From positions 1-34,743 of the IMG/VR virus record IMGVR_UViG_3300020045_006524: a stretch of DNA of 34,743 nt. One strand, given 5' to 3'. The notes beneath the pieces were generated by a model. The model was not told the DNA's origin. It worked only from the letters and a program-made list of their open reading frames with translations, and did no database searches. The position numbers and the translations under genes are program-made. This DNA is from a virus. Its lineage: Duplodnaviria; Caudoviricetes. Below, one piece after another: positions 1 through 24,407 of the stretch (within the stretch, counting starts at the first letter, position 1; every line of letters begins with the position of its first letter).

Positions 1-2
1 AC

Positions 3-98
3 AATGAGTACTCTATCTCACCAGCAGGTGGAATAACTGTTACCATTCCAGGGTTTGATGTTCACGATGGAAATAACTTCTTTTATATACTATACTAA
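3..98 (+). CDS. 3' end of an upstream gene truncated by the window edge (NEYSISPAGGITVTIPGFDVHDGNNFFYILY*)
   Basis: Open frame from 3 to TAA at 96-98; the stop overlaps the next ATG (TAATG). Confidence 0.6.
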   Translation, partial: NEYSISPAGGITVTIPGFDVHDGNNFFYILY

Positions 99-1051
99 TG
101 AGACAATTACTTACGATATTATTCATCTGCTTAGGATTATCAGCCTTTGCGCAGCCTGTGAAAGAGACTTCTCCTACATCTATTACGAGTCTTATACAGC
201 ATGGCATATTTGGTAGAAGCCTGGGTCTTCCTGTGGTTGCCGCCGTACCAACATTACGCCCTTCTCTTACAGCAGGTAAGGGAGTGGATAGTGTAGGAGC
301 TACTGTTTATTGTAAAGCAGATTCAAGTGTTTACAATTGGACCGGAACGCAGTGGAAGAAAAGTGGTGGTATCTCAGCCTTCACATTCACCCCGAACTAC
401 AACAATAAATTATTCTTACTCTACACAAACGGAGTGCTAACAGATTCAGTTCCATCCGGGGTGAAAGATGTGTACGGTATTAATGGCATAAGCGTAATAG
501 ATTCTATTGGTAATGTTTATATCAGTGGCAGTGGGTCGGGCTCTACAGACACTTCCCTTATTAGGGAGATTGTATCGGATTCGATAGCGGGTACATTAAA
601 TATCATTAATGATACATCTTATCGCTCAACAGAGCAACTAAACGATACGACTTTCAAGCAAAATAAAACGGTTACAAAAGGAACCGTTTTCATATTTGAG
701 CCTGGTAATATAGCTGCCCGGGATACCAACTACACATTGAAGCATTTACAAATAAATGTACAGACTTCTTCTTACACATTGCTGCTTTCAGATGATGGCA
801 AGATCATAAACATGAATGTAGGATCAGCCAATAATTTAACCGTTCCGGTAAATTCAAGTGTGCCCTTTCCCATTGGCACATCGGTTACCGTTGTGCAATA
901 TGGATCAGGTGAAACAACAATTAACCCTACCGTGGGTGTAACAGTAAGAACATCCGGTTCCCGCTATAAATTATTTGAGCAATACAGCACGGTGGTATTG
1001 ACAAAAATAGGAGTTGACGAATGGATTTTAAACGGAGATACAGAATTGTAA
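98..1051 (+). CDS. Signal-peptide-bearing tail-fibre-like protein
   Basis: N-terminal MRQLLTILFICLGLSAFA-Q; Gly/Ser/Thr-rich body; C-terminal ~100 aa (INVQTSSYTLLLSDDGKII...FPIGTSVTVVQYGSG...YSTVVLTKIGVDEWILNGD) resembles a recurrent phage fibre C-terminal module. Confidence 0.7.
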   Translation: MRQLLTILFICLGLSAFAQPVKETSPTSITSLIQHGIFGRSLGLPVVAAVPTLRPSLTAGKGVDSVGATVYCKADSSVYNWTGTQWKKSGGISAFTFTPNYNNKLFLLYTNGVLTDSVPSGVKDVYGINGISVIDSIGNVYISGSGSGSTDTSLIREIVSDSIAGTLNIINDTSYRSTEQLNDTTFKQNKTVTKGTVFIFEPGNIAARDTNYTLKHLQINVQTSSYTLLLSDDGKIINMNVGSANNLTVPVNSSVPFPIGTSVTVVQYGSGETTINPTVGVTVRTSGSRYKLFEQYSTVVLTKIGVDEWILNGDTEL

Positions 1052-1053
1052 TC

Positions 1054-3144
1054 ATGAAAAAACTAATCACAATATTATTTCTCATAAGTAGCTTTTGCGC
1101 CAATTGTCAATTGGTGAAGGGTGTTAGTAAAGTTCGCCGTGGTGTGGATGTATATGCCTACTCATTCGATGGTATAGATGCATCAATTACATTTCCTCAT
1201 AGTAGTGCGTTGAACTTTACCAATACGGACAAATGGACTTTTGAAACATGGGTAAACTTCCCTGATACAAATGGCGCAGTAAAATATCTTTACAGCAAAT
1301 TTGATGACGCTACCAGTAGAGGGATTCAGATATGCGGGAACGTTAGCAGGCTGAATATAAAAATACAAAATGGAGCCTCTAATAAAATTGACATAGCAAC
1401 AGCTCCATTTATTCTGAATGATATTTACGCTCTTGCACAGGATTGTCATTTTCCGGTAAATAAGTGGCTTCATATTATTATTAGTTACTCCGGTAATTCA
1501 TTGGCATCAGGAGTAAAGATTTATTTTGACGGTAAAGAGTATGTAACCCGTACAATCAATTCCAACACCTTGAGCGCTACTACTCAAAATACATCTTCTT
1601 TACTGATCGGCTCTAACGCTACCGTTTTTTCAGATCACAAGCAGGCTTTAACCAGAGTGTTCAATGATACATTGACATCAGTACAGATTGTTGCTCTTTA
1701 CAACTCCGGGAAGCCGAAATATACACATGGCCTCACAGGCTGCATATTTGAAATGAAAGTCAATGATGATGCCTTTGCATCAAACTTTATCGTGCTGGAA
1801 ACAGCAGGATCAAATAATGGTATAAGTGCCGGAATGTTATCAACACAAAAAGCAAGGTCAACAACTATAGACGGCTTGCTGGATATGGGTGTTCAAACTT
1901 ATACTGGAAATAATATCTATTATGAAACCTTTGCAAAAGCCGGAATGGAGCCTACATCAGCAGTAATGCATTCGCCTTTTTCGGATAAATTAAGAACACC
2001 CATCATTTACGATGCTTCAACAGGAAATACATTTATAGGCTGGCAGCAATCCCCAAATTTAGGGTACAACAGGAACAGCCGGTTACTATGTGTGATGCAC
2101 AATTCAAAGACAGTTACACCATCAGGAAGGGGGCATTTTTTAACACCAGGCGCAAACGATACACACTCTGCACCGGGAGTTTGCATCACGCCATCCGGGG
2201 AGGTTTTATTGGCACATGAGGAAAACCATAATTCACCGATTTATATCGAAAGAACTACCAATAAATCTGTTGGATCACTGGCTTCTATTTACACAATACC
2301 AAAGTATCACAGCTACCCAAATTTTGCTGTGATTGGATCGACAATATTTTTAGAATTGCGGGGATCTTTAACAAATGGCAATGGGCCACTGGAAGACGCA
2401 AGACTTTATAAAAGCACAGATAATGGCACTACCTGGGATGCAGGAATTAAATTTATAAGCACAGATTCTACCGTACTAGTTGAGCGGCCTTATGTTATGT
2501 CCGTGCATGATCCTGCAAAAATTTGTTATGTTATTACCATGCGAAACGATGGAGCCGGAAAGTTCACCCACATGTTTTATATAGAATCTTCAGACGGAAT
2601 AACATTCACTAATCGGAGTGGTTCATTTTCAAAAAATGTTGTCGCTGATGGTTTTATTACCAGGGCCGACCTTGTTAACTGTCGTGCAGATTTTGATCCT
2701 GCCAATGGCGATATACTTTGCAAGGCAGCAGTAAAAACGGCCACCGGAAATATCGTGTCAATCAATAATCATTCAACAACTGGCTACCGGATTACTTACT
2801 ACACTGGGGGAGTTTGGGCTACAAAAACTCTAAGCATCCCCACATATGTTGCAGCAGGACATGCTCCATCTTACAGAGCAGACTTCTTCGGACTATATTC
2901 TTATTCAGATACACATTTTGTTTTTTGGAGAATAGAAATAAGGGGCGGATTTAATGTGGTGGTTCAATATGAAACAACTGATTTTTTTGATACGATAGAT
3001 GCTGGAACAATTGTTAGCGCATCTAACAAAAATCACGAGCAATTGCAATGCACCTTTAATGTAACGGGAGCCGGTAAAATAGTGATTGCAGCAAACGTTT
3101 TGGGAGAATACAACAATTTATTTATTTACGAATACACACCTTAA
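1054..3144 (+). CDS. Secreted LamG/concanavalin-like plus BNR-repeat (sialidase-like propeller) protein; putative receptor-binding protein
   Basis: Start moved to MKKLITILFLISSFCANC-Q at 1054; LamG-like motifs (WTFETWV, WLHIIISY, IYFDG, LTSVQIVALYN); Asp-box repeats (YKSTDNGTTW, IESSDGITF). Confidence 0.7.
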   Translation: MKKLITILFLISSFCANCQLVKGVSKVRRGVDVYAYSFDGIDASITFPHSSALNFTNTDKWTFETWVNFPDTNGAVKYLYSKFDDATSRGIQICGNVSRLNIKIQNGASNKIDIATAPFILNDIYALAQDCHFPVNKWLHIIISYSGNSLASGVKIYFDGKEYVTRTINSNTLSATTQNTSSLLIGSNATVFSDHKQALTRVFNDTLTSVQIVALYNSGKPKYTHGLTGCIFEMKVNDDAFASNFIVLETAGSNNGISAGMLSTQKARSTTIDGLLDMGVQTYTGNNIYYETFAKAGMEPTSAVMHSPFSDKLRTPIIYDASTGNTFIGWQQSPNLGYNRNSRLLCVMHNSKTVTPSGRGHFLTPGANDTHSAPGVCITPSGEVLLAHEENHNSPIYIERTTNKSVGSLASIYTIPKYHSYPNFAVIGSTIFLELRGSLTNGNGPLEDARLYKSTDNGTTWDAGIKFISTDSTVLVERPYVMSVHDPAKICYVITMRNDGAGKFTHMFYIESSDGITFTNRSGSFSKNVVADGFITRADLVNCRADFDPANGDILCKAAVKTATGNIVSINNHSTTGYRITYYTGGVWATKTLSIPTYVAAGHAPSYRADFFGLYSYSDTHFVFWRIEIRGGFNVVVQYETTDFFDTIDAGTIVSASNKNHEQLQCTFNVTGAGKIVIAANVLGEYNNLFIYEYTP

Positions 3145-3146
3145 AA

Positions 3147-4352
3147 ATGAAAAGAATAATTACAGCCTTATTGCTATTCAGCAGTTTTCTAACTTTTGGG
3201 CAAATTGACACTATAAGAATAAAGACAGGGTTACTTATTGATACTATTCCCATGAGCGATAGGATTGATACCAAGTTCAATATTGTTGATACAACTGGTA
3301 AATGGGTATACACAGTTATTAAAATAAATGATAGCACCATCCGTGTTGGTAAGGGCGGAAGTTTTACGGACTTGTTAATTAGAGGTAATGGCGCAGGCGG
3401 TAGCGGTGGTGGAACTATTGCGCAATTCTTAGCATCAGCATTTGATACAAGCCATATTTATAGAAACTGGGGCTGGCTTGGTATTGGAGATACGGCAAAA
3501 TCAAAACTTACCATCACAAGTAAAGCAATAGGCGTATTGCCCTCTGGCAGCACGATATCTGATACAAGTGCTATCGTTATAGAAAACACTACTCCTGCAA
3601 CCAATGGTAATCAGCAGCAGTCCCCTGAGATATACTTAGATGGGCAGGGATTCCCTACAACATTAGGAGTTAGCAAGCGTGTAAGATTTGGGATAAGAGT
3701 TGTGCCAGTACAGGGAACTACTATTCCATCGGGGAGTTTAATTATTAGGACCGCTATAAATGCAACTAATTCAAATAGTCTAAACGACATCTTTATTTTA
3801 GGTAACGGCGGTACATTAACTCTGGCTGGGTCAGCAGCGGATCTTAATTGTCGAAATATCAGTCTTACTGGAAATATCTCGGCCGTATCTGCGGTGTTAA
3901 ACGGTGTAAGTTCATTAGGCTTTACAAATACAACAACTGTAGTAAAAGGCTGGAATTTAGTCACTACAGCTACATCAGCTGGAGTGCCTGTTAGGTACGG
4001 ATTAGGGTATTTTTCACAAGGCCATGTTTGGAACACCACAACTGCCGCTGATAATTTTGCAACTTTCGGATGGTATGTAAAACCTGTAAGTGGTGCTATA
4101 CCTACGGCGACTTATGTTTTGCAAGGAGGTGTTAATAATGTGGGAACTTCTTCTGATATACTCTCAGTTACAGAAGGTGGGGCATTAATTCTAAAAGAAT
4201 ACACTGTTGCTACATTGCCAACTATTGCATCAGGCACTGCTTATGCAACTGTAAGCGATGCAACATCACCAACTTATTTAGGAACGCTTACTGGTGGAGG
4301 GGCTGTTAAATGTCCTGTATTTTATAACGGTTCAGCATGGGTAAGTCATTAA
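3147..4352 (+). CDS. Signal-peptide-bearing tail-fibre/spike-like protein
   Basis: MKRIITALLLFSSFLTFG-Q; Gly hinge GNGAGGSGGG; C-terminal YTVATLP...VSDATSPTYLGTLTGGGAVKCPVFYNGSAW resembles phage tailspike C-terminal modules. Confidence 0.7.
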   Translation: MKRIITALLLFSSFLTFGQIDTIRIKTGLLIDTIPMSDRIDTKFNIVDTTGKWVYTVIKINDSTIRVGKGGSFTDLLIRGNGAGGSGGGTIAQFLASAFDTSHIYRNWGWLGIGDTAKSKLTITSKAIGVLPSGSTISDTSAIVIENTTPATNGNQQQSPEIYLDGQGFPTTLGVSKRVRFGIRVVPVQGTTIPSGSLIIRTAINATNSNSLNDIFILGNGGTLTLAGSAADLNCRNISLTGNISAVSAVLNGVSSLGFTNTTTVVKGWNLVTTATSAGVPVRYGLGYFSQGHVWNTTTAADNFATFGWYVKPVSGAIPTATYVLQGGVNNVGTSSDILSVTEGGALILKEYTVATLPTIASGTAYATVSDATSPTYLGTLTGGGAVKCPVFYNGSAWVSH

Positions 4353-4353
4353 A

Positions 4354-4434
4354 ATGAGATTTATCCTTACCATATTACTCTTTCCAATCATGCTAAACGC
4401 ACAGGACACAACCTATGCAGAGCAGCATAAATAA
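4354..4434 (+). pseudogene. 26-codon ORF made of a signal peptide plus 10 residues (MRFILTILLFPIMLNA-QDTTYAEQHK); probable remnant of a deleted cassette gene
   Basis: Read directly from the sequence (below the ORF-track cutoff); fills the gap between flanking genes; same signal-peptide-plus-Q layout as neighbours. Confidence 0.55.
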
Positions 4435-4440
4435 AACAAC

Positions 4441-4836
4441 ATGGAAAATTTAACCTGGCCGATCGTTGGCTTCATTATAACAATGCTATTCAGGCTTAAT
4501 CAGGATAGAAATACCATCCTAAACGGGAAAAATGTAAATCATTTATTAATGAATTTTATTTGTGCTGTACCGTTGGGTTTTGTCGTGTACGGATTTGCAA
4601 AAGCAGGCATAGCAGGATGGTTAATAAGTGCCGGAATGGTTTGTTCTGTTTGGTTTCTTTTATTCGATTTCCTGTTTAATAAAATACGGAGCCTTGAATG
4701 GTTTTGGAATGGCAATCAAATCGGTAAAAAGGCAGCATTTACAGACCGGATATTGAGAAAGATTCCTGCCATTTGGCAGTTGGTTTTAAAAGCTGGATTA
4801 GCTGCATTATTCATTATACTTTATATCGTTTTATGA
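4441..4836 (+). CDS. Small multi-pass membrane protein
   Basis: About four hydrophobic segments in 131 aa. Confidence 0.7.
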   Translation: MENLTWPIVGFIITMLFRLNQDRNTILNGKNVNHLLMNFICAVPLGFVVYGFAKAGIAGWLISAGMVCSVWFLLFDFLFNKIRSLEWFWNGNQIGKKAAFTDRILRKIPAIWQLVLKAGLAALFIILYIVL

Positions 4837-5225
4837 AAAAAATATTAGACGCAAGCGGATGGATTTTATTTATCATTTTCCTGATGTTTGGAATGGCTTC
4901 ACAAGGGCAAACAACGGCACAGCAATTATCTGCATTAAAAGCGCAGGACGTTATCATCAATAAGTCGATAGCAGAACTAAACGCAGCAATAGTTAAGCTA
5001 TTGGCAATAGTAGCTGAACAGGATGCGAAGATTGCAGCAATGCCCGCATGGAATCCTATACCTCAAAGTAATGCGTGGTTCACGGATAGCGTAAGGCCAT
5101 ACCGTATAGACCTACTATACAGAATTGAAAAAGTGCAAAGTGCAATACCTTCTTACCTGACTTTGTATATCGACACAATGACCGGATTGAAATTTAAAAA
5201 AGACACTTTATACTTTAAGAAATGA
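4833..5225 (+). CDS. Secreted or membrane-anchored coiled-coil protein
   Basis: Start moved to 4833 (ATGA overlap with previous stop); MKKILDASGWILFIIFLMFGMASQG-Q then a heptad-like helix. Confidence 0.65.
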   Translation: MKKILDASGWILFIIFLMFGMASQGQTTAQQLSALKAQDVIINKSIAELNAAIVKLLAIVAEQDAKIAAMPAWNPIPQSNAWFTDSVRPYRIDLLYRIEKVQSAIPSYLTLYIDTMTGLKFKKDTLYFKK

Positions 5226-8212
5226 AAATATTAATTACAATATTTAGCTTGTTCGCATTAAGCTGTTCAGCACAGGTACAATTGAAATTACAGGCTGGTA
5301 CTTACACGCCTCCTTATGTTCCCCCAACTCCTGTGCCAGGTAACACCGGGGCCTTTGCATTTACTTTAGGTAGCCAATTAAAGACATCAGCAGGGGTATT
5401 TCGCAATGATTCAATTCTTGTAAAAACTCTTTGGAATGACGAAAGCTATTCAGCCGGTACCTATACAAAATATTGGGATGGTACAGACGATTACGGCAAT
5501 GTAATTCCTTCGCCGGACGCAAACTACAAAGTGAAAGTATTGAGCAATAATGTGGCCCATACTTGGCAGGGTACAATCGGTAATACATCGGATTCAATGA
5601 CAGGATCAACTAAGCATCGGGGATATTATTACTGTATGCGTGGTTTAGTTTTCGCCGGGTCATACGGATATTTTTGCACCGGGTATTCAGAGGGTGGCCC
5701 GTCCATTGCAAAGTTCAATATCGCCACTCCAAACCAAAAGATTCAATTCTTTTCAGGTAACGCAAATTACAAGGCAGATAATAATTACGTAGCAACTGAT
5801 GGCACTAAAATATATTGGGGAGCATTCGATTCTAACAGTCCGAACAACACTTTTGTCTATGCGACAAATACAAGCGATGCCCTTGTAACTTTTAGTTCAG
5901 GTTCAGATTATATTATCACATACGGGAATGGTCAGACCTACAATTGCATTTCAAAATTAAACACAGCCAACTCTCTAATCACAGGGCTGGCAGTTCAAAG
6001 AACAGGTAATTATTTATTTGTGTCACGGGCTGCATTGAATCAATTACAGGTGCTTAACAAGAACACTGGTGCATTGGTGTCAACATTAACCTTTTCAAGT
6101 CCTACCGGCTTATGTGTCGATTCAAATGATAACCTTTGGATGACAGTTGCCGGGGCAGTTGGTAAGTATTATGTATCAGGTGCCGGCGTGGTTTCTTCGC
6201 AGGTTCTTGCATTGAGCGGAACGGATAATCCATTGGCTATTTCATACGGAAATAACAGAATAGCAGTGTGTAACGCAGGCACTTCACAGCAGGTCCAATT
6301 CTATGACACATCAGGCGTATTGCAAAGTACATTGGGCAGCGCCGGCGGGTATGCAACAAGTTCGGTAGTGAGTAATTCAAAGTTTTATTTCAGCGATGCG
6401 ATAGGTAACAAATTACCATTCGTAGCTTACCAATCAGATAATTCATATTGGGTAAATGATCCTGGGAACTTCCGGGTGCAGCATTACAATTCATCAAATG
6501 TTTTCGTAAATCGTGTGATGAATTTAGGTTCAACTTATTCCGTTTATCCTGATAAAAATAATATCAACCGGATCTTTGCCGGTTACCTGGAATTTAGTAC
6601 TGATTACACAACATTAACTGGATCTTCAGGATGGGCACTTACAAACAACTGGGGCGCAACGGTCAGTAATCTGTACGATGGGTTTGGACAAATGAGATTT
6701 CAAACAACGCTAAGTAATGGCAGGACATACGGAGTAATTCGCATTGGTAGCACTTATGAAATAGTGGAGTTAGTAGCCGGGGGGCAAACAAGATTTACAG
6801 GAGTTCTAGTTTCATTGTCAAAAATACTTTGTGATGATGGTAGTTTGCAGGATTACACAGAGAGCGGTGGCACTGCAACGCTAAGGCGATACCCGTTATC
6901 GGGCTTTAGTTCTAATAATCCAACATGGAGTAGCACAGGCGAAGTATTAGCCATTTTGCCCTACGGGAACAACCCGGTTACATATCCAAACAGTCAGGCA
7001 TTTTCAGGGCATAGGGTAGCATTTTTCAATTACAATTCATATCAATCCAACAGCGGGCCGGTTTATACAACAGGGTACCATTTATCAGGATCAACACGGG
7101 GCAGCAGCTCTACATTATTCAATACAGAAAAATCAACGCATCGTAATTACGAAGGCGGCTATCCCGGTGCAGGCTGGTTCGATATCGGAAACGGAGTTAA
7201 TAACTATGCGGGTGGATCAATGAGCATTTCAGGCACAAATATTTTCACATCTTATCATGGGGAATTTTGGAAAAACGGCCAAACAAATAAATTTAACCAT
7301 TATTATAAAAACGGGTTAGCTATCGGGCAATTTGGTACAACCCGGTTCGATGTAGGATTTCTTAACCATGCAGCCGAAGGAATGGCAGGGAACGCTTTAA
7401 CTCCGGTTTACATTTCAGCAGGTACGGATTCAGGTTATATGTATCATGGTGATGAATCAGACCATTCAAGTTTGCACAGGTGGAAGGTCTCAGGATTAAA
7501 TACAATTGCGGAACAATCCAGCAGCGTAGCATTCCCATCGGCTTACGTTGCACCGGCTTTGGGATATACCAATCTAATGGCCGGATTGCCTTTTGATTCA
7601 GATATTTCAACAGTTGGATTATGGAGTAAATCTGGTACAGGGTTAAGCGTTAAGACTTCAAGATTCAGTTACGACAAGTTGAAAGATAATGATGTACTTA
7701 TGTCATATTCTAATCCAAATACGTCTGCTGCATCAGCTACTCAAACGGTGTCCCTGGGTACCAATAACGTGACTACTAACTGGAAATTAACTGGCAGTAT
7801 TGCATACCCTGTGAACGCTGCTAATTATGGCCCAACGGCTCAGTACTTTGAAGTACTGGATGCGTTAGGTAAAGTACTTACTACATTCTACCCAATCCGG
7901 GATTTATCAGCATACCCATCTATCAATTATCGTTTGAAAGCAAATACATTGACGCTGATAAACATTACAGAAACAGGCGGAACATTTAACAGCTTACTGA
8001 AAGATTTGAAACCGTTTGAGATCAATTGTGTTGGTGGCTCGATAACATTCACTTATGGTAGCTATACAGGTACTACTACAATAAGCGATGGCACTGGAAA
8101 CTGGCGTACACCCACAACAGTACGGTTCAGATTTACAACAGTAGTAAGCGGTAGCCCTGTTGAAGGCGCAAATGTTACAGTACAAAATTTGAAACTTTAT
8201 AAAGAATATTAG
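5222..8212 (+). CDS. Large secreted protein with FlgD-like Ig domain and beta-propeller (NHL-like) repeats
   Basis: MKILITIFSLFALSCSA-Q; Pro linker; FlgD-Ig-like LVKTLW...AGTYTKYWDGTDDYGN; propeller repeats (PTGLCVDSNDNLW, PLAISY, VNDPGNFRVQHY). Confidence 0.7.
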   Translation: MKILITIFSLFALSCSAQVQLKLQAGTYTPPYVPPTPVPGNTGAFAFTLGSQLKTSAGVFRNDSILVKTLWNDESYSAGTYTKYWDGTDDYGNVIPSPDANYKVKVLSNNVAHTWQGTIGNTSDSMTGSTKHRGYYYCMRGLVFAGSYGYFCTGYSEGGPSIAKFNIATPNQKIQFFSGNANYKADNNYVATDGTKIYWGAFDSNSPNNTFVYATNTSDALVTFSSGSDYIITYGNGQTYNCISKLNTANSLITGLAVQRTGNYLFVSRAALNQLQVLNKNTGALVSTLTFSSPTGLCVDSNDNLWMTVAGAVGKYYVSGAGVVSSQVLALSGTDNPLAISYGNNRIAVCNAGTSQQVQFYDTSGVLQSTLGSAGGYATSSVVSNSKFYFSDAIGNKLPFVAYQSDNSYWVNDPGNFRVQHYNSSNVFVNRVMNLGSTYSVYPDKNNINRIFAGYLEFSTDYTTLTGSSGWALTNNWGATVSNLYDGFGQMRFQTTLSNGRTYGVIRIGSTYEIVELVAGGQTRFTGVLVSLSKILCDDGSLQDYTESGGTATLRRYPLSGFSSNNPTWSSTGEVLAILPYGNNPVTYPNSQAFSGHRVAFFNYNSYQSNSGPVYTTGYHLSGSTRGSSSTLFNTEKSTHRNYEGGYPGAGWFDIGNGVNNYAGGSMSISGTNIFTSYHGEFWKNGQTNKFNHYYKNGLAIGQFGTTRFDVGFLNHAAEGMAGNALTPVYISAGTDSGYMYHGDESDHSSLHRWKVSGLNTIAEQSSSVAFPSAYVAPALGYTNLMAGLPFDSDISTVGLWSKSGTGLSVKTSRFSYDKLKDNDVLMSYSNPNTSAASATQTVSLGTNNVTTNWKLTGSIAYPVNAANYGPTAQYFEVLDALGKVLTTFYPIRDLSAYPSINYRLKANTLTLINITETGGTFNSLLKDLKPFEINCVGGSITFTYGSYTGTTTISDGTGNWRTPTTVRFRFTTVVSGSPVEGANVTVQNLKLYKEY

Positions 8213-8213
8213 G

Positions 8214-8522
8214 ATGGAGCCAATTATAAAAACATTACTTGGACAGGGTACTATGGCAGCACTTTTCATATCCAGTTTATTGGTAGCGTTTGTGCTATTT
8301 ACTCGCTGGGCTGTGAAACTGCTGGATGAGCAGAAGGAGATGAACATCGCTCAGCTTAAGATTAAAGATGCAAGGATTGAAAAGCTTGAAGGGGAAATGA
8401 AAGAGATACAGAACTACGTGAAGAATGAGCTCCATGATACCATCGTAGCTACTCAAAAGATTATGGTACAGATCAATGACAACTTCATCCGTATGGAGAA
8501 ATACTTTAACAATTTAAACTAA
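8214..8522 (+). CDS. Holin-like protein (single TM plus coiled coil)
   Basis: One N-terminal TM segment and a charged coiled-coil tail; first gene of the lysis cluster. Confidence 0.5.
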   Translation: MEPIIKTLLGQGTMAALFISSLLVAFVLFTRWAVKLLDEQKEMNIAQLKIKDARIEKLEGEMKEIQNYVKNELHDTIVATQKIMVQINDNFIRMEKYFNNLN

Positions 8523-8528
8523 CGAACT

Positions 8529-8921
8529 ATGAACCAGCAAGCATTATTTCTACTCACCGGATTAGCCGGTTTCTTATTCCACAGCTTAGTTAAGCTTAAG
8601 TCATTGAAAGACGACTGGACAGCTGCTGCTGATAGCTCAAGCAGACCATTCAACGTATGGACGGACTATGTAGTGAAGGACATTTTTGGCATTTTGGCTG
8701 CATTGTTCTCACCTCTTATATGGCTTCTGCTGTTTGGTGAAATAGCGGCTAAGTACACTGCTCTACAAGAGTTCTCATTGACTTCCTTCTTCGTAATGGG
8801 AGCTCTCGGTAGCTACATATTGCAGCTGATACTTGGCCGGGCTAAAAAAGGCATCCGCAAAGTAGTAGATGAGAAAACAACTGAATTACATGCCCTTAAA
8901 GATCAAAGCAATGAAAACTAA
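8529..8921 (+). CDS. Putative holin (3 TM segments)
   Basis: Three hydrophobic helices and a basic C-terminal tail (GRAKKGIRK); adjacent to the spanin. Confidence 0.55.
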   Translation: MNQQALFLLTGLAGFLFHSLVKLKSLKDDWTAAADSSSRPFNVWTDYVVKDIFGILAALFSPLIWLLLFGEIAAKYTALQEFSLTSFFVMGALGSYILQLILGRAKKGIRKVVDEKTTELHALKDQSNEN

Positions 8922-9537
8922 TTTAAGATTCCTGCTGGCCATTGTGGTAGCATCCCTGTTGCTCATCTCCTGCAGTACAACCAGGAAAGATCAGAAAGCT
9001 GTAGAACGTGTAACTGCCAGCAGAAGTCTGCTTAATCAGGTGAAGGCGCCCGTGGACAGTCTCTGGCCTTGCATCGTGGACACAGTAACCAAGTTCAGAC
9101 CTGGAAAGACTGATAGCATTGCTTACGCAGTACTGGTACCCATAGAGATAGATACTGTTGACAGGCAACGTCTGCTGGATAGTATGCTGCAGAGTGGCGT
9201 CTGCTGGGAATCGGCTAAGACAGCCTACAATGAAGGTTTCAGTGCAGCTCGAAAGCAGATGAAAGATGTGAAGATACCTATGAAAGCTCCCGATACTGTA
9301 GAGGTCACACTCATAGACAGAAGAGGGCTGGACATTGCCAATGCGGCGAGACTGTCTGCTCAGCAGGAAGCAGCTACCCTTCGAGGGACCATCGCCACCC
9401 TTCAATCTACAGCAGAAGATTACAAGAAGGAACGCAACAAGTGGATGTGGTCTTTCATTGGACTGCTATTAGCTGTTGGAATCACAGCAGGTGTATATTT
9501 TTATCTCCGTTTTAAACCCAAACTATTACCCCTATGA
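8911..9537 (+). CDS. Putative unimolecular spanin
   Basis: Start moved to 8911; lipoprotein signal MKTNLRFLLAIVVASLLLIS-C and C-terminal TM WMWSFIGLLLAVGITAGVYFYL, the u-spanin topology. Confidence 0.7.
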   Translation: MKTNLRFLLAIVVASLLLISCSTTRKDQKAVERVTASRSLLNQVKAPVDSLWPCIVDTVTKFRPGKTDSIAYAVLVPIEIDTVDRQRLLDSMLQSGVCWESAKTAYNEGFSAARKQMKDVKIPMKAPDTVEVTLIDRRGLDIANAARLSAQQEAATLRGTIATLQSTAEDYKKERNKWMWSFIGLLLAVGITAGVYFYLRFKPKLLPL

Positions 9538-9815
9538 AGCTCACAGACATAGCCTCCGGATGGTTCAACTTCATTGCCGCTCCCATTGAGCACCAGCAGA
9601 TGATACACTTCCGGTTGGCCATCTGTGATAAGTGCCCCAGTAAGCGACAACTGAGCCCAATGGGAAAAACACTGGTAGAGGCTCTGAATAAAGAGGGTTC
9701 TACCTTCTACTGTAAGGAATGTGGCTGCCCGTTAGCGGGTAAGACTGCTGCTCCTCAATCAACCTGTCCGCTGAGTAAGTGGACCTATTGGATTAAACCT
9801 GAAACTCATTACTGA
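9534..9815 (+). CDS. Small Cys-rich (metal-binding) protein
   Basis: RLAICDKCP...CKECGCPL...TCPLSKW motif. Confidence 0.65.
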   Translation: MKLTDIASGWFNFIAAPIEHQQMIHFRLAICDKCPSKRQLSPMGKTLVEALNKEGSTFYCKECGCPLAGKTAAPQSTCPLSKWTYWIKPETHY

Positions 9816-10534
9816 TGACAACTACAATCATTGCCAAAATCAGGCAGATCATACGCTTCTTTGAAACCTCTAAGATTACAGGGGCAGACTATGCCGCCAT
9901 TGCCACATTCAATGACGGACCAGGGGGAAGACGCCAGGTAACTTTTGGCGCTTCACAAACTACTGAGTATGGGAATTTAAAAAAGCTCATTCAAATGTAT
10001 ATTGAAGCTAAAGGAAAGTATTCACCAGACTTTAGCAGCTATATGAGCATACTCGGAGATTTGAGTAGGCCCAGTTTGGCCACTTCCCCTAATTTCATTG
10101 CACTGCTGAAACTATCGGCCAATGATAAGATTATGCAGGATACGCAGGACCGGTTCTTCAATATCTATTATTTCAACCCTGCCCGCCAATGGTGTGAAAG
10201 GAATGGCTTAGTACTTCCATTGAGTATGCTCGTCATCTATGACAGCTTCGTACACAGTGGTAGCATCATGAACTTTCTGAGGGAAAGCTTCGGTGAGAAG
10301 GTACCGTCCCAAGGAGGCAATGAGAAGGAGTGGATCACTGCTTATGTGAACAGCAGAGATACCTGGTTAGAGAACCACAGCAAAGCCATCCTACAGCAGA
10401 CAGATTATAGAACAGACAGTTTCATCCATGCCATTAAGCAGGGGAACTGGAACTTGGAATTACCTTTTGCAGTAGTAAACTACAAGGACAAGGATGAGAA
10501 GACTACACCCATTGTGAAAGCTACTATTGTATAG
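9815..10534 (+). CDS. Putative endolysin, chitosanase-like (GH46, lysozyme superfamily)
   Basis: IIRFFETS (candidate catalytic Glu), NDGPGGRRQVTFG, MQDTQDRFFNIYYFNPA, YDSFVHSG; last gene of the lysis cluster; no signal peptide. Confidence 0.7.
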   Translation: MTTTIIAKIRQIIRFFETSKITGADYAAIATFNDGPGGRRQVTFGASQTTEYGNLKKLIQMYIEAKGKYSPDFSSYMSILGDLSRPSLATSPNFIALLKLSANDKIMQDTQDRFFNIYYFNPARQWCERNGLVLPLSMLVIYDSFVHSGSIMNFLRESFGEKVPSQGGNEKEWITAYVNSRDTWLENHSKAILQQTDYRTDSFIHAIKQGNWNLELPFAVVNYKDKDEKTTPIVKATIV

Positions 10535-10544
10535 CCGATCGGTT

Positions 10545-10572
10545 AAAAAATGGCAGAGCCCACTGCTCTGCC
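10545..10572 (-). terminator. Intrinsic terminator at the convergence point
   Basis: 8-bp stem GGCAGAGC/GCTCTGCC (10552-10559/10565-10572), 5-nt loop, U6 tract on the minus strand. Confidence 0.75.
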
Positions 10573-19994: not shown

Positions 19995-20762
19995 TTACAA
20001 TTGTACCGGTGCGAATGGAGATAGATCATTCACAAGCACTTCGTTTTCAGCAGAAGGCTCTGCTACCAGGTCGGTAGTGTTTCCAACTGATTCAGCCTCA
20101 GGCGCTTCCTTCACATCTACCATTACAGCAGGCAGGAATGCGTAGAACTGAGGAGCTTCACGACGCTGGGTAGTTACCTGGCCCTTGTCCTTTCCACGGC
20201 TTACGCTCTTTGGAATGTAAGTTACAGGCTTACCTGCCCATGGCTCACCGGTGGATGGGTTAGCTACGAACAGCATGTCCACATACTCCACACCTTCAAC
20301 AGCAGGCTGATCGTCCTTAGCTGACTTAGCGAAGGTGATGCCATAGATAGCTTCGATGGCCGGGATCAGATCATCGGCACCAAAAGTCTTACTACCCTGA
20401 TCCAGTACAGATGCTTTAGGCTTACCTGCTTCATCGTAAGTAGTGCTGCCAAACAGATCCACTTTAGGAAGTGTCTTGCTCACTGCGCTGATGATTAAGA
20501 TACGGTTGTCCTTACCGATGCTGAAAGACGGGTACAGATCAGTGTCAATGACATCAAATCCCATGGTACCTTTCTCGGCTCCCTTGTCGGTGTACTCCAG
20601 ATTGAACTTCTCAATAAGTTCTGTGGATGGAAACACACTTCCATCTCTGAATACACGAATAGCCAATCCTTCAGGATTGCGTTGCTTACGAGGTCCGCCT
20701 GTGCGTCCTGTGGTCTTTTCAGCTACATCCAAGATGGTAACTGTGTTCAAAAAGTCTAACAT
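19995..20762 (-). CDS. Hypothetical phage protein with acidic tail
   Basis: 255-aa ORF ending in an acidic disordered tail NDLSPFAPVQL. Confidence 0.75.
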   Translation of the reverse strand: MLDFLNTVTILDVAEKTTGRTGGPRKQRNPEGLAIRVFRDGSVFPSTELIEKFNLEYTDKGAEKGTMGFDVIDTDLYPSFSIGKDNRILIISAVSKTLPKVDLFGSTTYDEAGKPKASVLDQGSKTFGADDLIPAIEAIYGITFAKSAKDDQPAVEGVEYVDMLFVANPSTGEPWAGKPVTYIPKSVSRGKDKGQVTTQRREAPQFYAFLPAVMVDVKEAPEAESVGNTTDLVAEPSAENEVLVNDLSPFAPVQL

Positions 20763-20775
20763 AATTATAGTTGAT

Positions 20776-21291
20776 TTATAAATCCGTGAGTGATAATTCC
20801 ACCTTGAGATGATTCCAAGGTTTAGTTAATTTGCCTGCTGAATCGAGAAGAAGAAACACTCCATTCCTTGGTAATACCGTAGACTGTGTAAATCCTTTTG
20901 CTCTTGCAGTGTCCTGAGCATGTTCAATAGAACTATGAGCTTTACTCATATTGTTCTGATGAACCAGGTCAAAGTTCTTATCAAAAATGTGATGCATCCC
21001 AGCTGTGATGATCTTACCATTGAGTACATACTGAATATCACATAATGCGTCAAGCTCTTCAAGCCGATCGACGTCGTCTCCATCTGTTCCGGCACCATCT
21101 TCTAAATGTCCAGAACATAATTCTGATAAAGTATATCTGCAGTCACTGGCTTGTGCTAACTCCTGCAATTCCTCAAACAGCAGACGTATTCTAAGTTGTC
21201 TCATAGCCAATGGTTCCAGCTCGTTAATATTCCCAACTCCCTGGTCAAACACCTGCTGGAATTCAAGGACTTGCTCTAATGATTTGTTCAT
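20776..21291 (-). CDS. MazG-like / PRA-PH nucleotide pyrophosphohydrolase
   Basis: LRIRLLFEELQEL, EELDALCDIQYV, VHQNNMSK and GKLTKP motifs. Confidence 0.85.
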   Translation of the reverse strand: MNKSLEQVLEFQQVFDQGVGNINELEPLAMRQLRIRLLFEELQELAQASDCRYTLSELCSGHLEDGAGTDGDDVDRLEELDALCDIQYVLNGKIITAGMHHIFDKNFDLVHQNNMSKAHSSIEHAQDTARAKGFTQSTVLPRNGVFLLLDSAGKLTKPWNHLKVELSLTDL

Positions 21292-21293
21292 AG

Positions 21294-22049
21294 CTATGCA
21301 GTTTGAGCAACAGCAGGAGTAGTTACGTCTGCTGGCGATTTAACAATGGGTTTAATCTCCTCTCCGGTTTCGTAAGCAATGATTGCATTGCGTACAAACT
21401 GTAGATCATTGGGTATTTCCTTCTCAGGAAACATGCCTCTTGGAGACTTGCAGGTATCATTGCCATTGGTCTGGGTAGCGAAGACATACTTCATCTCTCC
21501 ATCATTGGCTTTCTTTACCTTGTTGAACAATACGATAGTGAACAGACCCTCAACTGTAAGCTTCTCATCTACCATCTTACCAATGGTTTTGGCTTTCAGC
21601 TTACGCCGGCCTTCCAAATCTAAGCTCTCTTCTGCATGAGTAAGAAAGAATACCATCAGGTCTTCCCTGAGTACCCGGGGCTTCTTCACAATCATTGCCA
21701 GGTTAGCTCCGATCTTGGTGAACTTTTCAAAGCCCTTCTCATCAATCTTGTCAAAGAATTCAAATGAGGACATGTACTGAAAGTCATCCACCACGATGTT
21801 TTTGATGTGAGGCATGTTAGAAGAAATGAAATCCATGCAGCTTGCAATTACAGCAGGCGATGCTGTAGCATACAAATTACCTGTAGGATTCTTTGAGGCG
21901 TCCCACGCCAGGTACTTAGACTTCCATCCTTTGAACGGCAGTGACTTATTCACTACGTTGATGATAAAGGTCTCTTTGGGATCGAGTGATTCTACACTCG
22001 TTGATTTGCCCGAACCGGATTCACCGATTATCAGGATGCTTTGTGCCAT
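21294..22049 (-). CDS. AAA_24 / Sak4-like P-loop ATPase
   Basis: Walker A GESGSGKS, Walker B IVVDDFQY, FLTH, CKSPRGMF. Confidence 0.8.
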   Translation of the reverse strand: MAQSILIIGESGSGKSTSVESLDPKETFIINVVNKSLPFKGWKSKYLAWDASKNPTGNLYATASPAVIASCMDFISSNMPHIKNIVVDDFQYMSSFEFFDKIDEKGFEKFTKIGANLAMIVKKPRVLREDLMVFFLTHAEESLDLEGRRKLKAKTIGKMVDEKLTVEGLFTIVLFNKVKKANDGEMKYVFATQTNGNDTCKSPRGMFPEKEIPNDLQFVRNAIIAYETGEEIKPIVKSPADVTTPAVAQTA

Positions 22050-22055
22050 GTGTTC

Positions 22056-22331
22056 TTATTTAGGTGAATTGAAAGACAGACATACGTTTTCTATCCTTTT
22101 AGCTTCTGTGATATAAAAATTGATTCCGGAACTCATTGGGTCGAGTGGCATGTCGTAGAACATACCTGAGATGGGATTCATGAACAGTGGAATCATGCGG
22201 TCTGCTGGTCCGTAACGGTTCTTCATGAGGTAGAGGGCTATGAAATACTGACCAATATCTTCCATACTGTAGCCCATGAACGTCTTGAGATTGTACTGTA
22301 TCGGTTTCACTAAACCGAATACGAGATCCGC
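22056..22331 (-). CDS. dnaB: DnaB-like replicative helicase, exon 2 (ADLVFGLVKP...LMKNRYG)
   Basis: Contains the KNRYG arginine-finger motif; joins exon 1 in frame to give ...YTFRD|ADLVFGL. Confidence 0.88.
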   Translation of the reverse strand, partial: ADLVFGLVKPIQYNLKTFMGYSMEDIGQYFIALYLMKNRYGPADRMIPLFMNPISGMFYDMPLDPMSSGINFYITEAKRIENVCLSFNSPK

Positions 22332-23498
22332 CATTGTTATTATCGCCCAGGCTCTTTATCCTGTGCTTCTGTAGTTTCATCAGTTATATCTACAGTTTAG
22401 ACTATATCTTCATTGTCAAATGACAATGCCCCGCTTTCGTGTGAGAATTATTGTCCGGTCTGGACTCACTCTTAGTCGTTGCACCTTTCCAATGCATTCC
22501 TGCAAAGGCTTGGCTCAGGATTACCTTACTCTAAGGCTTCCCCTGAATTAACGGAGTTACGTGACTGCGGTGTAGTTTGTATTGCATTGAAGGGATCATA
22601 TGAGGTAAAACAAGGTTAGCAAAATGTTGTGCTGACCTCTTTTTGATATAAACCATTCCTGATTTAGGAATAGTAATTTCAATATTAAACTTTTTGAAAA
22701 TCTGCCAAAGTATATGATGATGTTTAAAACATTGAGTAGCTATATAGTACCCTCCAGACTTTCCTAAAAATCCATCATCCATAAACCAAACTGCTAAAGA
22801 CAATTCTGAGACACACATCGGAAGAGAAGGACTAAGTTCTTTATACCCATTGCTATAAAACATATCATACATCCAGTTTAATTCTGAATTTGCATAAATA
22901 CTTGCGTCAGCAGATGAATAGTAGATTCCAGTTCTTTTATCAACGGTCTTGCGTTTATAGATTACCATATCCGAACAAAGAGGTTTTAATTCTTTAACTT
23001 TCCACTCAGTGTATGGTATTTGAGCAATTCCTTGAGAAATTCGTCCGGTAGTATTCGCATTATCTCTCCTTAAATGACCATCTCCAAGAGTATGTCCAAT
23101 TAGAATTTCTAATTGTCTTTGTGTGTACCCTACAGGTTTACTATAAATCATTGAAGGTCTTTCCAGTTTATAAAATTTTCTAGCTTGATGTATTGTTCTA
23201 GCATCGTAGCCAATAATATCTGCGATCTTATAATCACTCAATCCTTGTTCAACCAAAGGTTGTAAAGTCTCAAGTTTAATTGCAGTTTGTTTAATATGAA
23301 CTCCATTGATTGTTACTCCTTGATTTGAAAAAAGACCTAATGCCTTTTTCCTATTTCGAATTGTCTCTGCATTGCAATTAAAGTAAACTGCAATTTTAGA
23401 ATTCGATAAACCACGAGTGTGTAATAACATCAATCTTTTAGAGTTAATTTCAAGTTTTACCATAATGCAAAATTACATTACAAACTATTCGATTTTCT
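22332..23498 (-). mobile_element. Group I self-splicing intron (1167 nt) in dnaB
   Basis: Exon 1 ends in U (23499) and the intron ends in G (22332); P AAUUCAGGGGAA (22538-22549), Q AAUCCUGAGC (22513-22522), R GUGCAACGACUA (22473-22484), S AAGAUAUAGUCU (22399-22410); P3 CUCCGUU/AGCGGGG; P8 CAUUGUCA/UGACAAUG; IGS GUCACG pairs with exon end CGUGAU. Confidence 0.93.
22531..23463 (-). CDS. Intron-encoded LAGLIDADG homing endonuclease with two N-terminal HTH-like repeats
   Basis: EILIGHTLGDGHL and LSLAVWFMDDG motifs; repeats GLSNSKIA...ETIRNRKKALGL and GLSDYKIA...RTIHQARKFYKL. Confidence 0.9.
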   Translation of the reverse strand: MVKLEINSKRLMLLHTRGLSNSKIAVYFNCNAETIRNRKKALGLFSNQGVTINGVHIKQTAIKLETLQPLVEQGLSDYKIADIIGYDARTIHQARKFYKLERPSMIYSKPVGYTQRQLEILIGHTLGDGHLRRDNANTTGRISQGIAQIPYTEWKVKELKPLCSDMVIYKRKTVDKRTGIYYSSADASIYANSELNWMYDMFYSNGYKELSPSLPMCVSELSLAVWFMDDGFLGKSGGYYIATQCFKHHHILWQIFKKFNIEITIPKSGMVYIKKRSAQHFANLVLPHMIPSMQYKLHRSHVTPLIQGKP

Positions 23499-24407
23499 AT
23501 CACGAAAGGTATAAGAGCTGTCCCCAAAGTCCAAACGTTGGGGCGCAATTGCTACCTCTGATTTTTTCTGCTCTCTATACGCTGACATCATTGAAGTGGA
23601 GAACTGCTGGATCTGGATAAGCGTAGTGCCAAAGATGTTCCTCAGTTGTACGCTATACATACTCCATCTGTCCATGATCTGCTTGGTAGTGGTGCAACCT
23701 CCTTCCACATTGATAAGAGCTAAGTGATCAACAATGACCAGAGTCATAGCTGAAGGATCGTTGGCTTTGTAGCTTCTGATCATTCCCTTCTTATGGGAAC
23801 CTTTAGGCTCATCTCTGACAACAGTTCCAATCTTCTCATAGTGCTCTTCTACCAGCTTATTCAGCATTCCTGTGGGATGAAGCATGTGGTCAATCATAGT
23901 CACATCTTTCATCACTTCCTCAACAATGGTGTATGCACGCATCACCAGCCGCAGATGCTCTTTAGTCAACAGCAGACCGGGTATTCTACCCATCACATAG
24001 TCAGTGGAGAGATCAATGTTGTTGACAGCTTTGATCCACTGACATACCCACTTAGCCTTCTTCTCTACAGCAGACAGTTCAAAGGAGAAGTACTTGATAT
24101 ACAACTTCATTCCTTTGAGCTTAGCTGCTCTCCACAGGGAGTAGAAGTACATGAAGTCAGCTATTGTAGTCTTACCCACGCCGCTATCAGCGCCGATGAG
24201 GATGTATCTTGCCCGGTGTGTTCCGTGTATGTGAGCATTGATATTCTTCATCCCGTTATCAAGTCCCTCATTCAATCCTTCCATACCACGTTTCACCTGA
24301 GCAATGAGTCCATTGTCCTCTTCATACTCATCCCACTGCTGTTCCAGTTCTGCCCACTCCACTTCATCATCTGGTAGTTGCCAGATCACTTTAGGTTGTT
24401 CACTCAT
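23499..24407 (-). CDS. dnaB: DnaB-like replicative helicase, exon 1 (spliced product 394 aa)
   Basis: Walker A GADSGVGKT, YFSFEL, Walker B VIVDH, IQQF, PQRLDFGDS. Confidence 0.88.

Follow-up and report, generated by a model that had tools for sequence, protein, structure and literature searches.

The window analysed here is a single virus contig of 34,743 bases (IMG/VR record IMGVR_UViG_3300020045_006524). Its plus strand (positions 1-10534) carries a cassette of closely packed genes and then a lysis block whose last gene is a GH46 endolysin candidate, and its minus strand carries replication genes. Six open reading frames (ORFs) of the cassette, named here by their first base (98, 1054, 3147, 4354, 4833 and 5222), begin with a predicted Sec-type signal peptide, or leader, that ends directly before a glutamine. 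The cassette is likely the receptor-binding module of the phage, and we consider it moderately probable that its fibres are exported through Sec, mature in the periplasm and join the virions at lysis. We infer the steps of cleavage, export and attachment.

Judged by its relatives, the window is a fragment of an uncultured crAss-like phage of ~90 kb. A search with the rIIA-like protein returned four loci, two of which belong to genomes that are complete and have terminal repeats (G001, 91,265 bases; G002, 87,118 bases), which served as the complete relatives for comparison and whose replication proteins share ~28-73% identity with those of the window. The crAss-type terminase, portal and capsid genes are absent from the window fragment and present in G001 and G002, where PHROG 6681 and 11589 were also matched. 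Because the portal (E 1.5e-47 and 5.3e-43), the capsid (E 1.6e-13 and 3.4e-13) and one ring protein of these relatives match crAss001, we call the phage crAss-like, a designation that reflects these matches and not a tree. The host likely belongs to the Bacteroidota and, within them, to the Chitinophagaceae, since named homologues come from Ferruginibacter, Hydrotalea and a Flavihumibacter bin.

The cleavage motifs read SAFA-Q (ORF98), CANC-Q (ORF1054), LTFG-Q (ORF3147), MLNA-Q (ORF4354), ASQG-Q (ORF4833) and SCSA-Q (ORF5222), and every start and motif reported in a preliminary description of this DNA was recovered. Among the six leader ORFs, ORF4354 is a remnant of 26 amino acids (aa), and a leaderless gene encoding 131 aa (ORF4441) lies among them (Table 1). 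Leaders were called by a home-made rule, written after the sequences had been seen, that combines a basic n-region, an 8-residue hydrophobic core with a mean of at least 2.0 and small residues at -3 and -1. The same description had predicted that SignalP would be positive for the cassette and negative for the endolysin and replication genes. Under the rule 6/7 cassette ORFs were positive, all with Gln at +1, and neither the endolysin candidate nor any of the 35 minus-strand ORFs was; the negative cassette ORF is ORF4441. One of the five lysis-block ORFs, the lipoprotein-like ORF8911, was also positive and lacks the Gln. Of 46 host homologues bearing a type IX secretion system (T9SS) domain, the rule called no more than 28, and it was positive in 4/120 and 9/103 ORFs of the two complete relatives, several of these being probably spurious ORFs.

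Given each ORF's own n- and h-regions, the chance of a Gln site directly after them is 0.027-0.040, with a product of 1.8e-9 for six ORFs that were partly chosen for their Gln. Gln at +1 is conserved in 13 of 14 aligned homologues. When leaders were inspected by eye for the lipobox pattern, no fitting Cys was found in ORF98, ORF3147, ORF4354 or ORF4833, and a possible one was found in ORF5222, which is absent from several close homologues in which the Gln is conserved. Were the leaders left uncut, the fibres would be tethered to the inner membrane and picked up there or together with membrane fragments. Cleavage is only predicted, and the leader of ORF4833, the weakest of the six with an Asp in its n-region, could serve as a membrane anchor, as its score is that of a membrane helix. 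However, the hydrophobic cores are short, the small residues at -3 and -1 and the Gln at +1 are conserved across diverged leaders, and a leaderless member of the ORF98 family (P0152) begins where the mature chain would. The available portion of PMC5837995 gives a mean Q-value of 71% for Bacteroidetes signal peptidase I substrates and describes the Gln exposed by this peptidase in Bacteroidota as cyclised. We therefore regard tethering by uncut leaders as very unlikely.

None of the six cassette proteins scanned (ORF4354, with its 26 aa, was left out) carries the T9SS C-terminal sorting domain TIGR04183, which was detected in 2/2 controls, and PF18962 was likewise not found. Because of this, there is no evident route across the outer membrane for proteins that would act, as products of accessory genes, in the envelope of an infected or lysogenic cell through receptor masking, superinfection exclusion or adhesion. 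Such action has parallels: Q-rule genes of Porphyromonas prophages are interpreted as outer-membrane modifiers in the part of PMC10367356 available to us, and the mosaic adhesive trimer (MAT) fibres of Bdellovibrio, as presented in the accessible text of Caulton et al. 2024 (PMC10769870), are phage-like, carry signal peptides and are displayed on the cell. MAT proteins resemble the ORF98 family in the succession of signal peptide, conserved N-terminal domain and variable phage-fibre-like C termini, some with S74, but they are cellular surface adhesins of chromosomal origin whereas the cassette genes are phage-borne, and the N-terminal domains are likened by description only. An integrase in G002 and the lower GC content of the cassette (0.402, compared with 0.447 in the lysis block and 0.432 in the replication block) also agree with a role in the envelope. 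Nevertheless, the cassette genes sit tightly in the late block, only 0-7 bases apart, and no ORF of the window, which is a fragment, matched the integrases of G001 and G002, whose slot in the lysis block is empty here. Moreover, a scan of 185,579 genomes with the conserved N-terminal domain of ORF98 returned just two loci, of which one is a phage-like contig that has the hub genes too and the other a weak, unrelated match. Action in the envelope hence appears unlikely.

Table 1 Features of the plus-strand late block and its downstream border
Feature	Position	Strand	Description	Remarks
236-aa gene, 3' end	3..98	+	3' end of conserved leaderless gene (236 aa in relatives)	31 residues, 61% identity to G002 protein
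ORF98	98..1051	+	317 aa: leader at 1-18; conserved N-terminal domain of ~70 residues; linker; tail-protein module at the C terminus (216-314)
ORF1054	1054..3144	+	696 aa: leader; lectin domain of LamG/ConA type at 40-209; likely a BNR-type propeller after it, from a weak lead	PF13385 E 1.2e-10
ORF3147	3147..4352	+	401-aa fibre-like protein: leader, Gly/Thr-rich body, ~55-residue C-terminal module
ORF4354	4354..4434	+	26-aa remnant (leader + 10 residues) of longer leader-bearing gene
ORF4441	4441..4836	+	leaderless protein of 131 aa with three predicted membrane helices	no Pfam or PHROG family
ORF4833	4833..5225	+	130-aa protein: weaker leader or anchor, helical-looking segment
ORF5222	5222..8212	+	996 aa: leader, ~22-residue extra N-terminal peptide and Pro-rich linker, all-beta body, NHL-type propeller ~131-422
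Holin candidates	8214..8921	+	pair of small membrane proteins with 1 and 3 predicted helices	function by position
Spanin candidate (ORF8911)	8911..9537	+	lipoprotein-like protein with C-terminal membrane helix, unimolecular spanin candidate
Endolysin candidate	9815..10534	+	GH46-family endolysin candidate, no leader	PF01374 E 9.6e-18
Hairpin	10552..10572	.	GC-rich hairpin between converging late and replication blocks	terminator-like on minus strand

The ORF98 family and the putative tail hub

The stop codon of the 236-aa gene overlaps the start of ORF98 (TAATG). In G001 and G002 the order is a gene of 257 or 262 aa, the 236-aa gene and a long gene for a fibre-like protein of 1193 and 1104 aa, respectively. 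These two proteins retain leader and Gln, and their mature N termini align with that of ORF98. Besides a leaderless muzzle-like protein, they are the sole long late-strand proteins of fibre-like composition in the two genomes. A fibre-like gene with leader and Gln lies 3' of the 236-aa gene in all six distinct loci with downstream DNA (the window, G001, G002, L021, L022 and L029), with a leaderless 72-aa gene in between in one of them (L022:157-375) and with the leader of L029 called by eye. Such genes follow one another twice in L021 and three times in L022. Loci L016-L020 and L024-L026 were left out as repeats of G001 and G002. Two distant crAss-like contigs (L027 and L028) show a short hub-A-like match, and leaderless genes follow the match in L028. 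Two further candidates, L023 and L030, were dropped as weak matches in unrelated bacterial DNA.

The structural model of the 262-aa G002 protein (predicted local distance difference test, pLDDT, 87.2) was compared with 48,161 chains. Chain 7qoj_G, the tail hub protein A gp38 of crAss001, came joint first (Z 9.4, root mean square deviation [rmsd] 5.5, 158 residues aligned) and gave the longest alignment among the best 50 rows. Because the other top row is a fibronectin-type domain of an unrelated enzyme, the 262-aa protein is likely, and not certainly, hub A. Sequence/profile comparisons gave no link between the hub-A-like protein and gp38 (probability 0.6%) or between the 236-aa protein and gp39 (0.2%). 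Foldseek with the hub model found nothing in the PDB at E<=0.001, no significant match came from searching PDB sequences with the alignments of hub and anchor or with the ORF98 C-terminal domain, and the ESM Atlas returned only sub-threshold phage-fibre leads for the 236-aa protein. The predicted complex of G002 chains (two hub-A-like proteins, one 236-aa protein and three anchor domains), with runs at 0.50, 0.00 and 0.00, is evidence for neither side.

Residues 216-314 of ORF98 match PHROG 8780 'minor tail protein' (E 1.5e-20), further PHROG tail and virion families and 245 phage records. This domain may be T4 gp10-like. Together with the last ~55 residues of ORF3147, which form a gene-terminal module in 10/10 viral loci returned, this bears out the two fibre-type C termini noted in the preliminary description. 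A profile search of the ORF98 family returned 47 proteins, of which 28 carry the N-terminal domain at a threshold of our own. Twenty-four of the 28 pass the leader rule and 23 have the Gln, a count that is biased since the family profile itself contained the leader. The four failures comprise two proteins whose leader is visible on inspection, one whose start lies within the domain and the leaderless P0152. P0152 and P0190, a homologue of the upstream 236-aa gene, both have a longest contig of 9911 bases (JGI) and may be neighbours. Searches of viral contigs with the whole of ORF98 and with P0152 found no relative.

Members of the family range from 123 to 2244 aa and join unrelated C termini to the conserved N-terminal domain; one ends in a Peptidase_S74 chaperone (E 1.3e-8), and there is a weak pectate-lyase-like match. 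A fixed N terminus with swappable C termini is the usual design of tail fibres, and the conserved N-terminal domain of ORF98 is likely a virion anchor. A precedent is found in crAss001, whose hubs hold the N-terminal 26 residues of the fibre gp22 according to the part of Bayfield et al. 2023 (PMC10172136) available to us. The likeness to crAss001 extends from the portal, capsid and ring-protein homology of the relatives to a hub-A-like fold encoded upstream of the fibre gene and to attachment through a short N-terminal segment, as the ORF98 family likewise has a conserved N-terminal segment and variable C termini. However, no sequence similarity was seen between the ORF98 domain and gp22, and the gene at the hub-B position of the relatives has a C-terminal extension of ~140 residues.

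ORF5222 and the other cassette members

ORF5222 has 211 homologues, and 46 of the 120 listed carry the T9SS sorting domain. Among the matches listed, the best T9SS forms reach up to 54% identity over 96% of ORF5222, and a Ferruginibacter T9SS cargo is ~53% identical. The T9SS cargo of Chitinophagaceae (PF18962, TIGR04183) has the same leader and Gln as ORF5222, which differs in lacking the sorting domain and the PKD/PA14 extensions and in having an added short N-terminal peptide. The folded body of most T9SS forms starts only a few residues after the Gln. Those homologues that are nearest to ORF5222 have no sorting domain and bear an extra peptide of ~15-30 residues, often [LVI]RIKAG-like, which resembles the start of ORF3147, IRIKTG, a likeness spotted post hoc; some other homologues without the sorting domain also lack the extra peptide. 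The model of ORF5222 is confident from residue 40 onward. Its NHL-type propeller (Z 24.2, rmsd 2.6, 236 residues aligned) is uninformative on function, and Foldseek and VIA searches returned generic propellers only, with the region past residue 436 barely covered.

Homologues of ORF5222 occur in three viral loci (L031, L032 and L033), and in all three the gene is intact and lies in a run of leader+Gln genes before lysis-like genes. The run comprises five consecutive genes in L032, the first of which matches a PHROG tail spike, and four in L033. The copy in L031 is 90% identical to ORF5222 in a phage with other replication and lysis genes, so the gene appears to travel between unrelated phages and to land in the same type of cassette. 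A hub-A profile matched none of the three records, two of which are incomplete. The L031 phage (L031:2703-6555) has integrase-like and repressor-like genes. Two of its genes are also found in the cassette of the window, the first at 90% identity and the second intact against a remnant in the window, which points to a recent exchange between unrelated phages. The second shared gene is ORF4354: its DNA resembles a leader-bearing gene of 173 aa in L031 until the similarity stops abruptly a few codons before the stop.

The preliminary description had named host-derived cargo as a case against an adhesive cassette. This case holds in part, since ORF5222 is homologous to T9SS cargo of the host; the gene is, however, intact, and all three other phage contigs have it in a similar cassette. 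Decay of such cargo to a state without present function would agree with the host homologues of ORF5222 and with the remnant ORF4354. Against decay, five long frames of the cassette are intact, ORF5222 is intact in the three other phage contigs as well, and the ORF98 counterpart keeps its leader in relatives whose replication proteins have diverged to the extent given above; we find decay hardly credible.

ORF1054, with its lectin domain, gave BNR_4 clusters in the ESM Atlas at a score of 0.81, under the bar of 0.9, as the lead to its putative propeller, and had no relative among viral contigs or cultured phages. Neither ORF1054 nor ORF5222 has the N-terminal domain of ORF98. This is one of the points that suit release without attachment, in which the proteins would be stored in the periplasm until lysis frees them to act in solution as lectins, decoys or enzymes that cut glycans, and so aid the progeny in escaping or in reaching new cells. 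The close identity of ORF5222 to Ferruginibacter T9SS cargo and the frequency of the sorting domain among its homologues are in line with this, as are the lyases with signal peptides in the Cellulophaga phages Ingeline and Nekkels, remarked on as annotation in the accessible part of PMC8776804. Free release nonetheless leaves the conserved N-terminal domain and swappable C termini after the hub genes unexplained, would leave G001 and G002 without a long fibre, and does not account for the extra N-terminal peptide that the nearest ORF5222 homologues carry and most T9SS forms lack. We rate it as fairly unlikely for the cassette as a whole, and it may fit the host-derived ORF1054 and ORF5222 even with ORF98 as a virion fibre.

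Like the window with its ORF4441, L022, L031 and L032 have membrane-protein-like genes near their cassettes. In L033, a 254-aa gene with leader and Gln and no PHROG family lies between two lysin-like genes of an unrelated phage (L033:9135-9899).

A proposed route of export and late attachment

In Bacteroidota, non-cytoplasmic proteins are glycosylated at D-[ST]-hydrophobic motifs, as described in the available portion of PMC12871550. Counting D-[ST]-[AILVMT] against the number expected by chance, we found 19 motifs in the six leader ORFs where 9.1 were expected (p 0.004). ORF98 has 5 (1.4 expected), ORF3147 5 (1.6) and ORF4833 3 (0.4), and these three with ORF4354 together have 14 (3.5). The ORF98 family has 229 motifs compared with 79 expected, and the spanin candidate ORF8911, an internal control for exported proteins, has 6 compared with 0.8, whereas the minus-strand ORFs are near expectation (22 versus 19.6). 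Leaders, their conservation and the enrichment of a motif modified only in non-cytoplasmic proteins together give good support to the export to the periplasm that was originally proposed.

An indication that proteins of this kind may reach virions comes from the Cellulophaga phage phi18:3 (GenBank KC821620, Pachyviridae). Its gp085, gp086 and gp087 are noted as structural by tandem mass spectrometry (MS/MS), and 3/3 have leader and Gln, compared with 0/9 of the other MS-annotated proteins tested. As in the window, the three are encoded by consecutive leader+Gln genes before lysis-like genes, and PHROG 16053 'tail fiber protein' matches both the N terminus of gp087 and the C-terminal domain of ORF98. 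However, phi18:3 belongs to another phage family with another host, and its GenBank record is silent on leaders. The preliminary description had offered two outcomes after export. Joining the virion at lysis is favoured, given the position of the ORF98 counterparts, the only long fibre-like genes of two complete relatives, downstream of a hub-like gene and given the phi18:3 proteins, and action at the cell surface is less likely in view of the missing T9SS domain.

In the textbook account, tailed phages are fully assembled inside the cytoplasm by the time the cell lyses. Fibres that are exported and attached late would follow another course. The cassette would be transcribed late, together with the lysis genes, as suggested by the ORFs abutting or overlapping from 98 to 10534. 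The leaders would route the chains through the host Sec system, signal peptidase I would cut before the Gln, and the new N-terminal Gln would be cyclised. The fibre-like members would be O-glycosylated and fold in the periplasm, where the proteins would remain because they have no T9SS domain. Once the holin opens the inner membrane, finished particles would meet the fibres, and the conserved mature N terminus of ORF98 would dock on the hub region of a tail built in the cytoplasm, as gp22 does in crAss001. A more speculative extension, weaker than this route itself, is that the short ORF98 serves as an adaptor on which ORF1054, ORF5222 and the second fibre, ORF3147, hang by short N-terminal peptides. 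Branched tailspike systems provide an analogue.

Several observations weigh against attachment of exported fibres. The fibres gp22-gp26 of crAss001 and those of phi38:1 have no leader, so the leader trait is patchy among Bacteroidota phages as judged from these genes. Export is likewise not universal for ORF98-family and ORF3147-module genes by our calls, because P0152 is leaderless and 7 of the 10 genes with the ORF3147 module fail the leader rule (3/10 pass). The start of P0152 coincides with the predicted mature N terminus and could be miscalled. The leader calls depend on the home-made rule. The hub-A match is middling in Z as well as tied with the fibronectin-type domain, and the 236-aa gene is hub B by position alone. 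The leaderless muzzle-like protein of the relatives (1502 aa, with tandem-95, cadherin-like, repeats; L014:104-4609, G002) could bind receptors itself. Regarding glycosylation, ORF1054 and ORF5222 are unenriched (5 motifs versus 5.9, in a split chosen after the per-gene values had been seen), one cytoplasmic helicase is enriched (5 versus 1.7), and phi18:3 gp085-087 show no enrichment. The GenBank MS note on the latter could mean co-purification, and the integrase of G002 makes action in a lysogen possible. Lastly, G002 has two small leaderless genes directly after the fibre gene (20228-20854; L011:1228-1854). If these and the small leaderless gene beside the fibre in L022 encode fibre chaperones, the compartments mismatch. 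No relation was detected (E 0.22) between the leaderless 87-aa gene of G002 and a gene of L033 that encodes 118 aa and bears a leader.

If fibres are indeed routed through Sec, an assembly step would be added that occurs only at or after lysis, the particle would gain host-made glycans and pyroglutamate ends, and infectivity would come to rely on the genes with which the host exports and glycosylates proteins. Such a route would further account for how lectins and enzymes that the host secretes, and that fold in the periplasm, can be put to new use by Bacteroidota phages for binding receptors. A wider proposal, which we advance tentatively and consider doubtful, is that many Bacteroidota phages build head and tail in the cytoplasm and glycosylated receptor-binding gear in the periplasm and join them at lysis. 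In this phage, host secreted proteins would also be recruited as tips by dropping the T9SS tail, adding an N-terminal docking peptide and plugging into an exported adaptor fibre, and such tips would be traded between unrelated phages.

In the literature within our scope, which did not extend to supplements and most subscription journals, no description of export with late attachment of tail fibres was found, and the portions of PMC8143477, PMC5723332, PMC13704836 and PMC12014285 available to us do not mention exported fibres. The Ingeline and Nekkels lyases and the Porphyromonas Q-rule genes are Bacteroidota phage proteins with Sec leaders for which the accessible text states no link to virion fibres. 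Leader-bearing proteins of such phages are thus already in print as remarks, and the new part would be a tail-fibre cassette with an undescribed maturation route. The contributions of the window are its connection to a tail-hub fold, a family member that has no leader and begins at the predicted cut, and a homologue of T9SS cargo of the host that has become a mobile cassette gene. With phi18:3 on Cellulophaga baltica, a cultured system exists in which the idea is directly testable.

Lysis block and other genes

The spanin candidate had no relative in G001 or G002. GH46 is a chitosanase family, and the relatives have other lysins in the endolysin slot. Both relatives have an integrase inserted in the lysis block (G002 21893-23017, minus strand, L011:2893-4017; G001 79433-80557); that of G002 belongs to PHROG 1 (E 4e-26). 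A terminator scan of the window gave 11 sites compared with 6.9 +/- 3.2 in shuffles, and a sigma-70 promoter scan was near chance (37 versus 30.0 +/- 5.3). The -33/-7 promoter pattern of Bacteroidota had one match, at 4027 inside ORF3147.

G002 contains an ORF of 3737 aa. Small leader-bearing genes lie between two giant late genes in both relatives (G002 3645-4088, L010, 147 aa with Gln; G001 7095-7607, L005, 170 aa), and their products have no obvious mutual similarity. At 22056-24407 of the window, a helicase-like gene that is whole in the relatives is divided into two ORFs around an endonuclease-like ORF of 310 aa, an interruption that is likely a self-splicing intron. In G001 and G002 it is the rIIB-like gene, and not the helicase-like gene, that is split around a similar ORF.

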